In this document: positions 51,530 to 55,495 of the stretch, in pieces
How the letters are laid out: each line of letters opens with the position of its first letter
Position numbering within the stretch: the first letter of the stretch is position 1
Origin: Escherichia coli
Lineage (GTDB): Bacteria > Pseudomonadota > Gammaproteobacteria > Enterobacterales > Enterobacteriaceae
NCBI RefSeq assembly: GCF_009931435.1
Contig: NZ_CP043414.1
Length of the DNA: 64,000 bases
Direction: 5' to 3' (one strand)
Made by a program: the position numbers and the translations under genes
Notes under the pieces: generated by a model
Told to the model about the DNA's origin: nothing
Seen by the model: only the letters and a program-made list of their open reading frames with translations
Database searches by the model: none

Positions 51530-52150
51530 TTAGAGGATTTCCAGCAGTTCGACTTCAAACACCAGGGTGCTGAACGGAGGGATGGACGCGCCTGCGCCAC
51601 GCTCGCCATAGGCCAGTTCCTGCGGGATAGTCAGTTCCCATTTAGAACCTACCGGCATCAGAGTCAGTGCTTCAATCCAGCCAGGGATCACGCCGTTAAC
51701 CGGGAATTCAGCTGGCTCGCCACGGGCAACAGAGCTGTCAAACACAGTGCCGTCGATCAGTTTACCGGTGTAATGAACACGAACGCGGTCAGTGCGTGCC
51801 GGAATTGCGCCTTCCCCCTGATTGATCACGCGGAATTGCAGGCCAGATTCGGTGCTATTCACACCTTCTTTTTTGGCGTTTTCTTCCAGGTATTTCACAC
51901 CTTCAGCAGCCATCGCCTGGAAACGCTGACGACGAACGGCATCGGCGCGTTCGTGGATTTCACGCAGCGCGCGGTGCACCACATCAACCGGAACAGCCGG
52001 ATGTTTGCCTTCCAGCGCATCGGCAATGCCTGCAACCAGGGCTTCTGGCAGCAGCCCTTCCAGGCCTGATTCACTCAGTTGTTGCCCTACCTGCAAACCA
52101 ATGCCGTAGCTTGCTTGCGCTTCGATGGTGTCAAAAGTTGGGGTGGTCAT
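51530..52150 (-). CDS. fklB: FKBP-type peptidyl-prolyl cis-trans isomerase
   Basis: 206 aa from ATG 52150 ([20 protein letters not shown]...); the track ORF is extended upstream. Confidence 0.95.
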
Positions 52151-52367
52151 CGTATTTCCTTTCTTAGGGTATAAAGTAGCGGGCAGCATATCAGCCACAC
52201 TTCTTTGGGTAAAACTTTGTCGCGGGAATGATGACAAATCCCGGGGAAAAAGAAACAATAGCAATATCCCGTATGAATATAATAAAGGCGGGTTTACCAC
52301 GGACATCATAGCGTTAGCTTATTCATAGGCTATGATTGAGGAACAAGACGCGGAGCAGGAGGAAACC

Positions 52368-53006
52368 ATGCCCGGGCGCTTTGAACTAAAACCAACCCTG
52401 GAGAAAGTCTGGCACGCGCCGGACAATTTTCGCTTCATGGACCCGCTACCGCCGATGCATCGTCGGGGGATCATTATTGCCGCTATTGTATTGGTGGTCG
52501 GATTTCTACTCCCGTCGGATGATACGCCAAACGCGCCGGTGGTGACGCGTGAAGCACAGTTAGATATTCAGTCGCAATCACAACCGCCGACAGAAGAACA
52601 GCTGCGGGCGCAATTAGTCACACCACAAAATGATCCTGATCAGGTGGCTCCGGTCGCTCCAGAACCGATACAGGAAGGCCAACCGGAAGAGCAGCCGCAA
52701 ACCTCGCAAGTGCAACCTTTCCAGCCAGATAGCGGAATTGACAATCAATGGAGCTCTTATCGTGTCGAACCCGGTAAAACAATGGCGCAGCTGTTCCGCG
52801 ACCACGGACTGCCCGCTACCGATGTCTATGCAATGGCGCAGGTAGAAGGCGCGGATAAGCCACTGAGTAATTTGCAAAATGGGCAGATGGTGAAAATCCG
52901 CCAGAACGCCAGCGGCGTGGTGACGGGCTTAACCATTGATACGGGAAATAATCAACAGGTCCTGTTTACCCGCCAGCCGGATGGCAGTTTTATTCGCGCG
53001 CGGTAG
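52368..53006 (+). CDS. ytfB: Cell-division protein YtfB (OapA domain)
   Basis: 212 aa from ATG 52368 ([16 protein letters not shown]...), SD aggagg. Confidence 0.85.
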
Positions 53007-53637
53007 ATGAAGGGTCAACCAGAAGCCAGCTAAGGATCGTCTCTTTGATGACCTTACGCCTGGCTTCCAGTGCCTGCGGTGAAACCATACTGATGTGATA
53101 AACCAGGCCAAGCGTATGTTGGTTGATCAAATAATATCCTCCAAGAGCAGCAATATTAATATTCACCTGCAACGGGTCGATATCTGGCTTAAAAATATTG
53201 CGCCGTTTGCCTTCAGCTAATAATGACTCCATTAACTGTAAGTGTGCGTGGTTAATTTCTAAAAGGCGCTGTGATTTTGCATAATGCACCCCTTTACTCT
53301 GGTTTTCACTATGCACAATTTTTAAAAACCAGGGGTTAGCAATGTAATAATCCCAGGTGAAATCGATAATTTTCTCAATGGCTTTTTGTGGCGGAAGACC
53401 TGAGAAATCAAGGGATTTTTCTTTTTGCCGAATATCATTCCAGGTATATTCCAGCACTTCGATAAATAAATTTTCTTTATTACCAAAGTGATGATAAACC
53501 GTCTGTTTACTACACTCCGCGGCCTTGACGATATTATCGACTCTGGCCCCTTCGTAACCATATTCGGCAAATTCATTAACCGCACATAACAACAGCTTTT
53601 CCTTCAGGCTTTGTACGTTGCTGGTATCAAGATACAT
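52990..53637 (-). CDS. TetR/AcrR-family transcriptional regulator (probable full-length counterpart of K-12 ytfA)
   Basis: HTH ...[28 protein letters not shown]...; likely start ATG 53637 (MYLDTSNVQ..., 215 aa), the track ORF starting at 53697; divergent from the SDR operon, convergent with and overlapping ytfB. Confidence 0.8.
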
Positions 53638-53759
53638 TCCGCTTCCCCACGTCTTCTTCGTGATGACTATCTTAACCCGATTTGTTAGAAGCTCCACTAA
53701 AATGGCTAAAAACTCGCAATTTCATCGGGTTATCAAATGCTCTGTGATCATTATCGCAT

Positions 53760-53781
53760 ATCAACCAACTAGATGGTTGAT
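53760..53781. promoter_or_regulatory. Perfect palindrome in the divergent TetR/SDR intergenic region (candidate TetR operator)
   Basis: atcaacca-actaga-tggttgat, 8-bp perfect arms, about 70 bp upstream of the SDR start. Confidence 0.5.
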
Positions 53782-53848
53782 CTTTCTTGCCACACATTGC
53801 AAGCTAATCGTCACTTAAGGAAATAATATTCAAAAAGAGGGTTATCGT

Positions 53849-54640
53849 ATGAAGTCAACACGTCCTGTTGCTGTCATCACTGGAGCCGCACGTGGTATTG
53901 GAAAGGGCTGTGCACTGGAACTTGCGCGTGGCGGATTTAATCTGCTGATTAATGATCGTCCGGATGCCGACAGCGTAGAAAAATTACATGCCACACAACA
54001 AGAATGTCTGGCGGAAGGCGTGGAAGTGATTTGCTTCCCTGCTGATGTTGGCGATCTCTCCCTTCATGAAGAGATGCTCGACGCGGCGCAAAACCAGTGG
54101 GGACGTCTGGACTGTCTACTCAACAACGCAGGCATTTCAGTGAAAAAACGCGGTGACCTCCTCGACCTCGAACCAGACAGCTTCGACCAAAACATTGCCA
54201 TTAACACCCGTGCGCCGTTCTTCCTTGCTCAGGCATTCAGTAAGCGATTACTGGCACAGCCGAAACCGGAAGCAGAACTGCCGCACCGCTCGATTATTTT
54301 TGTCAGTTCCATAAACGCCATCATGCTGGCGATGAATCGCGGCGAATATACCATTGCCAAAACTGCCGTCTCCGCCGCAGCTCGCCTGTTTGCCGCTCGC
54401 CTTTGCAATGAACAAATTGGCGTTTATGAAGTGCGCCCTGGTCTCATCAAAACCGATATGACCATTCCGGCAACGGCTTATTACGACGAACTGATTGCTA
54501 AGGGGTTAGTGCCGTGGGGACGTTGGGGTTATCCGGCTGATATTGCTTCCACTGTCCGCGCGATGGCGGAAGGCAAACTGATTTACACCTGCGGTCAGGC
54601 GGTCGCCATCGACGGCGGCTTAAGTATGCCGCGCTTCTGA
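53849..54640 (+). CDS. Short-chain dehydrogenase/reductase (SDR)
   Basis: 263 aa with TGAARGIG cofactor motif and YxxxK catalytic motif. Confidence 0.85.
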   Translation: MKSTRPVAVITGAARGIGKGCALELARGGFNLLINDRPDADSVEKLHATQQECLAEGVEVICFPADVGDLSLHEEMLDAAQNQWGRLDCLLNNAGISVKKRGDLLDLEPDSFDQNIAINTRAPFFLAQAFSKRLLAQPKPEAELPHRSIIFVSSINAIMLAMNRGEYTIAKTAVSAAARLFAARLCNEQIGVYEVRPGLIKTDMTIPATAYYDELIAKGLVPWGRWGYPADIASTVRAMAEGKLIYTCGQAVAIDGGLSMPRF

Positions 54641-54649
54641 GGCTGAATC

Positions 54650-55492
54650 ATGAGAGATCTGTTACAACGCCCGGATTTATTCAGTATCAATACTGCGACA
54701 CTGGGCTATAAAACACCGCTACCTGCCATTATTGATGCCTGCGCCGCACGCGGTATTGGCGCGATTGCCCCCTGGCGCAGGGAGTTACAGGGTGAAGATC
54801 TCCAACAAATCGCCCGCCAGCTTGCTGCCAGTAACATGAGCGTTTCCGGTTTGTGCCGTAGCACCTATTACACCGCGCCGACGCTGACGGAACGCAAACT
54901 GGCGATTGATGATAACCGCCGGGCGCTGGACGACGCCGCTGTACTGAACGCCGCCTGTTATATGCAGGTGGTTGGCGGTCTGCCAATGGGAACAAAAGAT
55001 CTGTACGAAGCGCGGGAACAAGTGAAACAAGGGATTCGCCAGTTGCTGCCACATTCGAAAGATGTCGGCGTACCAATTGCGCTGGAGCCGCTGCACCCGA
55101 TGACCGCCGCCGATCGCTCTTGCCTGTGCACGTTACGTCAGGCGCTGGACTGGTGTGATGAACTCGATCCCGATGGTGAATTTGGCCTCGGCGTGGCGGT
55201 AGATGTCTACCACGTTTGGTGGGACCCGGATCTCGCCAGTCAGATCCTGCGTGCCGGAAAGCGCATCCTCGCGTTTCATGTTTCCGACTGGCTGGTGCCA
55301 ACCACCGATTTAGTCAATGACCGGGGAATGCCGGGAGATGGCGTAATCAATATTCCGTCTATTCGTCGCCAGGTAGAAAATGCCGGATTTAACGGTGCTG
55401 TGGAACTGGAAATATTCTCGCCGTACTGGTGGCAAAAAGATATTAACAGCACGCTGGATATTAGCGTCGATCGCATCGCGCATTATTGCTAA
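54650..55492 (+). CDS. Sugar-phosphate isomerase/epimerase-like TIM-barrel protein (xylose-isomerase-like fold)
   Basis: 280-aa ORF 9 nt after the SDR stop; family assignment by overall resemblance only. Confidence 0.6.
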   Translation: MRDLLQRPDLFSINTATLGYKTPLPAIIDACAARGIGAIAPWRRELQGEDLQQIARQLAASNMSVSGLCRSTYYTAPTLTERKLAIDDNRRALDDAAVLNAACYMQVVGGLPMGTKDLYEAREQVKQGIRQLLPHSKDVGVPIALEPLHPMTAADRSCLCTLRQALDWCDELDPDGEFGLGVAVDVYHVWWDPDLASQILRAGKRILAFHVSDWLVPTTDLVNDRGMPGDGVINIPSIRRQVENAGFNGAVELEIFSPYWWQKDINSTLDISVDRIAHYC

Positions 55493-55495
55493 GGA

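Follow-up and report, generated by a model that had tools for sequence, protein, structure and literature searches.

The 17-bp overlap between the coding ends of ytfB and the convergent TetR/AcrR-family regulator gene (ytfA) of Escherichia coli is probably an incidental by-product of tight convergent packing, with a Rho-type end of the ytfB transcript embedded in the neighboring coding sequence. The junction was analyzed within a window of 64,000 nucleotides (E. coli contig NZ_CP043414.1, assembly GCF_009931435.1), and all positions are those of the window unless assigned to another genome. The two genes and their shared end were located as follows:

52368..53006, plus strand: ytfB coding sequence, 212 aa, stop codon TAG at 53004-53006 (ORF list, Pfam and PGAP)
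53637..52990, minus strand: TetR/AcrR-family regulator gene (ytfA), 215 aa, ATG at 53637, stop codon TAA at 52992..52990
52990..53006, both strands: tail-to-tail overlap TTATTCGCGCGCGGTAG of 17 bp, with both stop codons inside it

Direct reading gives ...GGC AGT TTT ATT CGC GCG CGG TAG as the 3′ end of ytfB on the plus strand and ...TCT ACC GCG CGC GAA TAA as the 3′ end of the regulator gene on the minus strand; the overlap encodes (F)IRAR in YtfB and (S)TARE in the regulator, each followed by the stop. YtfB is an OapA-family, LysM-like cell-division/adhesion protein that matches the Pfam domains OapA_N and LysM_OapA (E 7e-35), and the LysM_OapA match extends to residue 211 of 212. The regulator belongs to the TetR/AcrR family, with an N-terminal helix-turn-helix domain (TetR_N, E 2e-13, residues 19-61) and a C-terminal ligand/dimerization domain (TetR_C_29, E 3e-30, residues 83-201 in Pfam), and its last 14 aa (residues 202-215) lie outside TetR_C_29. 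No NCBIfam equivalog matched the regulator at or above its cut-off; ytfA has been described as a strain-variable TetR-family regulator (PMC6790063). Orthologues of the regulator and of ytfB are present in four genera. Both reading frames are genuine genes whose 3′ ends, including the stop codons, share nucleotides, i.e., a convergent coding-sequence overlap. Sequence reading, Pfam and PGAP confirmed the genes, the stops and the overlap of 17 bp given in a preliminary description of this DNA. The coding sequences leave no room for an intergenic terminator. That the overlap is an artefact of annotation or ORF calling, with one true stop lying elsewhere, has next to no chance of being correct. 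The tail of the regulator falls outside its Pfam domain and its exact end is without domain support; however, both stops are legible in the sequence with no earlier in-frame stop, E. albertii, E. whittamii and Klebsiella spallanzanii have kept these stops, and the PGAP coordinates agree.

Within the overlap, codon position 1 lies opposite position 1, position 2 opposite 3, and position 3 opposite 2, which we read as the (123:132) phase in the notation of Lillo & Krakauer 2007 (PMC2174442), the commonest phase among convergent overlaps according to the same study. Because 58 convergent coding-sequence overlaps were counted in one E. coli genome (PMC2174442), an overlap of 17 bp between ytfB and ytfA is not unusual for this species. 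It is also already known, being annotated in RefSeq in most E. coli genomes, K-12 included. PGAP gives the identical 17-bp overlap in EC7518, in K-12 MG1655 and in the closest genome, the dog isolate Z0117EC0005 (L001: ytfB 9069..9707, TetR 9691..10338), for which identity was 99.8%, and 98.3% over 16.4 kb. A 1.45-kb region containing the junction (52300-53750) was matched in 5416 of 5426 complete E. coli genomes. With a 141-nt probe spanning the junction, the overlap-type arrangement was found in ~5020 of the 5426, and an abutting allele with 0-bp spacing (40EC type) was found in 389. At 99% identity or above, the 52300-53750 region is matched by just 16 RefSeq E. coli records, and its identity to most E. 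coli is 90-95%; given so few near-identical records, the window carries the ytfB-TetR allele of a minority lineage.

The regulator itself is frequently incomplete. In K-12 MG1655 it is the pseudogene ytfA (‘missing N-terminus’, residues 83-215 kept), and the adjoining catabolic island is deleted, so that yjfZ comes next; in other strains the regulator is interrupted by an IS200/IS605 element. Altogether ~2270 of the 5416 matching genomes are without a full-length regulator, owing to K-12-type truncation or IS disruption, and in the two such types that were examined, K-12 itself and one IS-disrupted strain, the ytfB end was unchanged. The K-12 pair (ytfB/ytfA, b4206/b4205) shares with the window an identical junction, the 17-bp overlap, the same stops and the same stem-loop (see below), and the YtfB proteins are 98% identical. 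In contrast, the window has both an intact regulator and an intact island, which in K-12 are a truncated pseudogene and a deletion, respectively.

Published K-12 data place the end of the ytfB transcript inside the regulator gene. K-12 coordinates were moved to the window by gapless homology, the K-12 regulator being a promoterless fragment, and the following features were obtained together with a folding prediction:

53022..53067, plus strand: stem-loop of 19 pairs, −24.2 kcal/mol, no U-tract, followed by CAGUGCCUGC
53065..53074, plus strand: equivalent of the K-12 steady-state ytfB 3′ end (TRS, PMC10687069)
53075..53300, plus strand: approximate Rho-dependent termination zone, antisense to the regulator gene and of coarse resolution

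The ‘Primary’ ytfB 3′ terminus of K-12 was mapped to 4428012(-), with a peak at 4428011-4428020 (TRS, PMC10687069, Supplementary Data 2 and 4), which relative to the ytfB coding sequence (4428079-4428717) lies 67-68 nt beyond the stop; the 3′ UTR is listed as 68 nt. This terminus falls at ~53073, ~6 nt beyond the base of the stem-loop. A Rho termination region labeled ‘antisense ytfA’ has its maximum at K-12 position 4427873(-) (Adams et al. 2021, PMC7815308, Supplementary file 2), with a Rho score of 9.65 (p 8e-39), and this maximum falls at ~53212, some 206 nt downstream of the ytfB stop. In the 800-nt window upstream of 4427873, 219 reads were counted without bicyclomycin and 185 with it, and in the 800-nt window downstream the counts were 39 without and 318 with the inhibitor (PMC7815308). 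The curated Term-seq 3′ ends of Adams 2021 include none within 4427800-4428199, and the 3′ end at the stem-loop appears only in TRS, where ytfB has a low read density of 0.18-0.25 read starts per nt (PMC10687069). We infer that these 3′-end and Rho data apply to the strain of the window. The preliminary description had stated that ytfB transcription must read into the regulator gene, which agrees with a K-12 3′ end located 67-68 nt beyond the stop and a Rho zone at ~206 nt. Its further claim, that an independent terminator is impossible for either gene, does not hold for ytfB, for which a stem-loop and Rho termination were found inside the TetR coding sequence, and is weakened again by the rho-independent terminators that lie inside partner genes in 21 of the 58 E. 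coli convergent overlaps (PMC2174442).

The sequence around this end was examined for signals that could account for it. A consensus scan for intrinsic terminators (GC-rich hairpin plus U-tract) found none on the plus strand from 53006 to 53760, and over 52000..54000 it returned four sites compared to 2.1 ± 1.3 in shuffles, i.e., not above expectation. The tail of the stem-loop has two U in 8 nt. No known RNA family was matched by Rfam at E ≤ 1 within 52000..54000. Downstream of the stem-loop the numbers of C and G in 80-nt windows are about equal or slightly in favor of C (18/13 at best), so this RNA is not markedly C-rich, and no clear Rho-utilization site is visible there. The hairpin could also be read as a bidirectional intrinsic terminator serving both convergent genes, since it is symmetric and stable on both strands (−31.8 and −29.0 kcal/mol for a 91-nt segment) and rho-independent terminators inside partner coding sequences are known for E. 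coli convergent overlaps (PMC2174442). This reading is most improbable: a U-tract is absent on both sides, with CAGUGCCUG after the plus-strand hairpin and UGGUUGACC after the minus-strand hairpin, and read-through from ytfB is bicyclomycin-sensitive in K-12. Moreover, the minus-strand hairpin lies upstream of the TetR stop, in translated sequence, and therefore cannot terminate a full-length TetR mRNA.

The ytfB end is better compared to Rho-dependent transcripts with precise steady-state 3′ ends just past stable stem-loops that lack a U-tract, as described in the part of Dar & Sorek 2018 considered here (PMC6061677). With that type, as far as this part of the source describes it, ytfB shares the U-tract-less stem-loop and, in K-12, the precise 3′ end and the bicyclomycin-sensitive read-through. 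It differs in that the ytfB stem-loop lies within the coding sequence of another gene and must also encode protein, and in that ytfB is without a clear C-rich Rho-utilization tract downstream. Like the convergent overlaps of Lillo & Krakauer (PMC2174442), that of ytfB/ytfA is short, is in the commonest phase (as read here) and has a 3′-end signal in the partner coding sequence; compared to the terminators embedded in those overlaps, the ytfB signal is a U-tract-less stem-loop plus Rho dependence, not a rho-independent terminator. In the mechanism that we favor, RNA polymerase would continue past ytfB into the antisense strand of the TetR gene, Rho would release it ~100-300 nt downstream, and 3′-5′ exonucleases would trim the ytfB RNA back to the stem-loop at 53022..53067, leaving a 3′ UTR of ~67 nt. 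The stem-loop is thus proposed to be a putative exonuclease-protective 3′ structure of the ytfB mRNA, and we infer that it protects this message.

The stem-loop begins 15 nt beyond the ytfB stop, inside the TetR codons for a conserved 15-residue peptide, and selection on the RNA has to be separated from selection on the protein. Folding of 201-nt segments against dinucleotide shuffles gave marginal z values of −2.05 and −1.40, and since this signal was marginal the shuffles were replaced by protein-preserving synonymous resampling. When the TetR peptide was kept, only 0.15-0.7% of recodings were as stable as the native sequence (p ~0.0015-0.007, z ~−3). As a control for the post-hoc choice of region, the resampling was applied to all 30-codon windows of both genes and both strands (75 windows), and the three windows containing the stem-loop were the most extreme of the 75 (z −2.6 to −3.1). 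The runner-up, at 52383..52472 in ytfB (z −2.4), holds an experimentally mapped ORF-internal terminator, indicating that the method detects real elements. Excess stability was also present in other lineages, with z ~−4 in E. albertii and E. whittamii, −2.4 in EC7518, −2.2 in the 40EC allele and −2.5 in Entomohabitans teleogrylli (range over six of seven lineages −2.2 to −4.2), and was not significant in K. spallanzanii (z −1.4). Across eight sequences, 92.8% of pair cells were standard pairs, and two stem pairs were changed on both sides, including a C:G to G:C exchange at two paired synonymous third positions. The observed score was reached in 6 of 500 shuffles, a value obtained from eight related sequences and two covarying pairs. 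As the lineages are related and the peptide is highly conserved, conservation and pair counts are weak evidence, and the compensatory changes are suggestive only of a selected structure.

Alternatively, the stem-loop may have no role as RNA, being a chance by-product of the codons for a conserved peptide, with the K-12 3′ end a decay intermediate. Consistent with this, the peptide is almost invariant and nucleotide conservation would be expected regardless, just two covarying pairs support the stem among the eight related sequences, the excess in K. spallanzanii is weak (z −1.4), and the curated Term-seq set of Adams has no 3′ end at this position. Nevertheless, we consider such an origin distinctly unlikely, because the excess stability persists when the peptide is preserved by resampling, the region is the most extreme within both genes, the excess is kept in the ~80%-identical 40EC allele and in Entomohabitans, and an independently mapped primary 3′ terminus lies a few nt from the stem base. 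The stem-loop in the ytfB 3′ UTR thus looks to be under selection at synonymous TetR sites, and its apparent maintenance at synonymous sites of a neighbor’s codons is the mildly new aspect of this junction.

For the opposite strand, the candidates for an end of the TetR transcript all lie within ytfB codons:

52926..52898 (element 52889..52926), minus strand: weak terminator-like hairpin, predicted, −15.1 kcal/mol, followed by AUUUUCACC
52975..52953, minus strand: weak candidate from the consensus terminator scan
52820..52784, minus strand: weak candidate, followed by AUUGUUUUAC

None of these stood out under synonymous resampling, and the stem sequence of 52926..52898 differs in the 40EC allele. 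A selected structure downstream of the TetR stop was also considered and rejected, as windows covering 52893..52997 gave a non-significant z of ~−1.5. Downstream of this stop the RNA has more C than G (25-27 compared to 16-18 per 80 nt), a composition that would be compatible with Rho loading. The TetR transcript would then presumably end in a Rho-dependent or leaky manner 60-250 nt into ytfB.

The origin of the overlap was approached through its spacing in relatives, which were sought by a scan of one genome per species. Close homologues of the regulator were found only in Escherichia species, K. spallanzanii and Entomohabitans teleogrylli, the next matches being ~40% identical, and in every close relative the regulator stands tail-to-tail with ytfB. 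The spacing alleles were as follows:

E. coli, E. albertii and E. whittamii: 17-bp overlap, TetR tails ...STARE / STAHE / STARG
K. spallanzanii: 17-bp overlap, TetR tail ...SLIGRE
E. coli 40EC allele: 0 bp, TGA then directly TTA, TetR tail ...NPARG
Entomohabitans: 15-bp gap, TetR tail ...VAK

Overlap length as such is therefore not conserved, ranging from 17 bp through 0 bp to a 15-bp gap, and an 8-bp indel distinguishes the overlapping from the abutting allele. The C terminus of YtfB is FIRAR in all Escherichia and Klebsiella loci and FIRAQ in Entomohabitans; the TetR tail varies in both length and sequence across lineages. Two substitutions were found within the overlap among Escherichia sequences (CGC to CGT and ATT to ATC), both of them silent in ytfB and both altering a TetR residue (R to H and E to G). 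The TAA stop of the regulator is the antisense of the ytfB Phe-Ile codons TTT-ATT, and the overlapped stretch therefore evolves as ytfB sequence. Taken from these alignments, the TetR tail is to all appearances an unconstrained read-on beyond the last domain. With variable spacing and changes that are silent in ytfB, the overlap appears to have arisen as a by-product of close packing: the FIRAR C terminus of YtfB, within the LysM-like domain, would be fixed, and the TetR frame would run on beyond its last domain for a few codons free of constraint and end at the first antisense stop (TAA). Stop-codon mutation has been proposed as the origin of convergent overlaps (PMC2174442), and the origin of the ytfB/ytfA overlap fits this model.

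The preliminary description also envisaged antisense interference between the two genes. In such an excludon-like arrangement, overlapping ends would yield complementary transcripts, and polymerase collision or RNase III would make ytfB and the regulator mutually antagonistic. Several observations point this way. Steady-state ytfB transcripts of K-12 overlap the final 84 nt or more of the TetR frame, and nascent ones extend further; TetR transcripts, for their part, must enter ytfB because there is no strong terminator after the TetR stop. As in excludons (Sesto et al. 2013, and the part of the ExcludonFinder paper considered here, PMC12288877), ytfB/ytfA is convergent, has zero intergenic distance and has at least one transcript overlapping the neighboring gene, and E. 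coli MG1655 is reported there to have 165 RNA-seq-defined convergent excludons, with short intergenic distances favored. However, ytfB is not named in the main text of that paper, the overlap length is unconserved, and the K-12 read density of ytfB given above is low. Many genomes (~2270 of 5416) are without a full-length regulator and the ytfB end is unchanged in the two types examined, the junction being the same in K-12-like genomes in which the regulator has neither promoter nor N terminus. TetR-type repressors are, in addition, typically transcribed only weakly. With the junction kept in the absence of an intact regulator and the spacing variable, interference is not needed to explain the overlap, and we regard it as fairly unlikely. 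A more elaborate version gives the stem-loop a double role, in which it would set and stabilize the ytfB 3′ end, and the ytfB 3′ UTR, constitutively made and 84 nt or longer, would serve as an antisense RNA to the terminal part of the TetR message; the regulator would hence be lowered and the threshold for island induction set, and induced TetR transcription would lower ytfB. This version is a long shot.

Several observations were made in the surroundings of the junction. A terminator-like hairpin, GTCTGGCACGCGCCGGAC followed by AATTTTCGC, occupies 52407-52433 on the plus strand, 40-66 nt into the ytfB ORF, at the place where an ORF-internal 3′ end, very abundant and independent of Rho, was mapped in K-12 (4428652(-); Adams 2021, PMC7815308). 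On this evidence, ytfB transcription may be subject to premature termination or attenuation, or may yield a small 5′ RNA. The 40EC allele, carried by 389 of the 5426 genomes, is a sharply bounded mosaic block of 1.4 kb (L004 ~3190-4580, corresponding to window ~52490-53880) that spans most of ytfB, the TetR gene and the intergenic region between the TetR gene and the operon. The block is 63-87% identical to the common allele, apart from one 100-nt window at 95%, and its flanks are ~100% identical; it may be either a recombination import or an old polymorphism.

The island adjoining the regulator (53849-61268) encodes an SDR, a xylose-isomerase-like TIM-barrel protein, an enoyl-CoA hydratase, a fused CoA-transferase, a 690-aa FAD_binding_2 oxidoreductase and an MFS transporter, and is followed by yjfZ. 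In Z0117EC0005 (L001) a three-gene TRAP transporter replaces the MFS transporter, and colinearity with that genome ends at 59666, within the oxidoreductase gene. One further element was located between the TetR gene and the divergent, SDR-led operon:

53760..53781, both strands: palindrome ATCAACCAACT/AGATGGTTGAT, 22 bp, 91% complementary, no spacer

The palindrome is likely a TetR operator, albeit a putative one. Compared to the window, the regulator of K. spallanzanii is 90% identical and the adjoining YtfB just 64%, and no close regulator homologue was found in representatives of other Enterobacteriaceae species (one genome per species). Because of this difference in identity and the patchy occurrence, the island appears to have moved horizontally, yet always at the ytfB 3′ end.

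Overall, the overlap matters little, being a routine item of annotation in most E. coli genomes and one among dozens of convergent overlaps in the species. Of modest interest is the stem-loop that presumably forms the ytfB 3′ end inside the coding sequence of a neighbor, where it apparently constrains synonymous sites, and the pair provides an example of tightly packed convergent genes that end their transcripts without intergenic DNA. In practical terms, deletions or tags placed at the 3′ end of either gene would disturb the coding end of the partner or the ytfB 3′ UTR.
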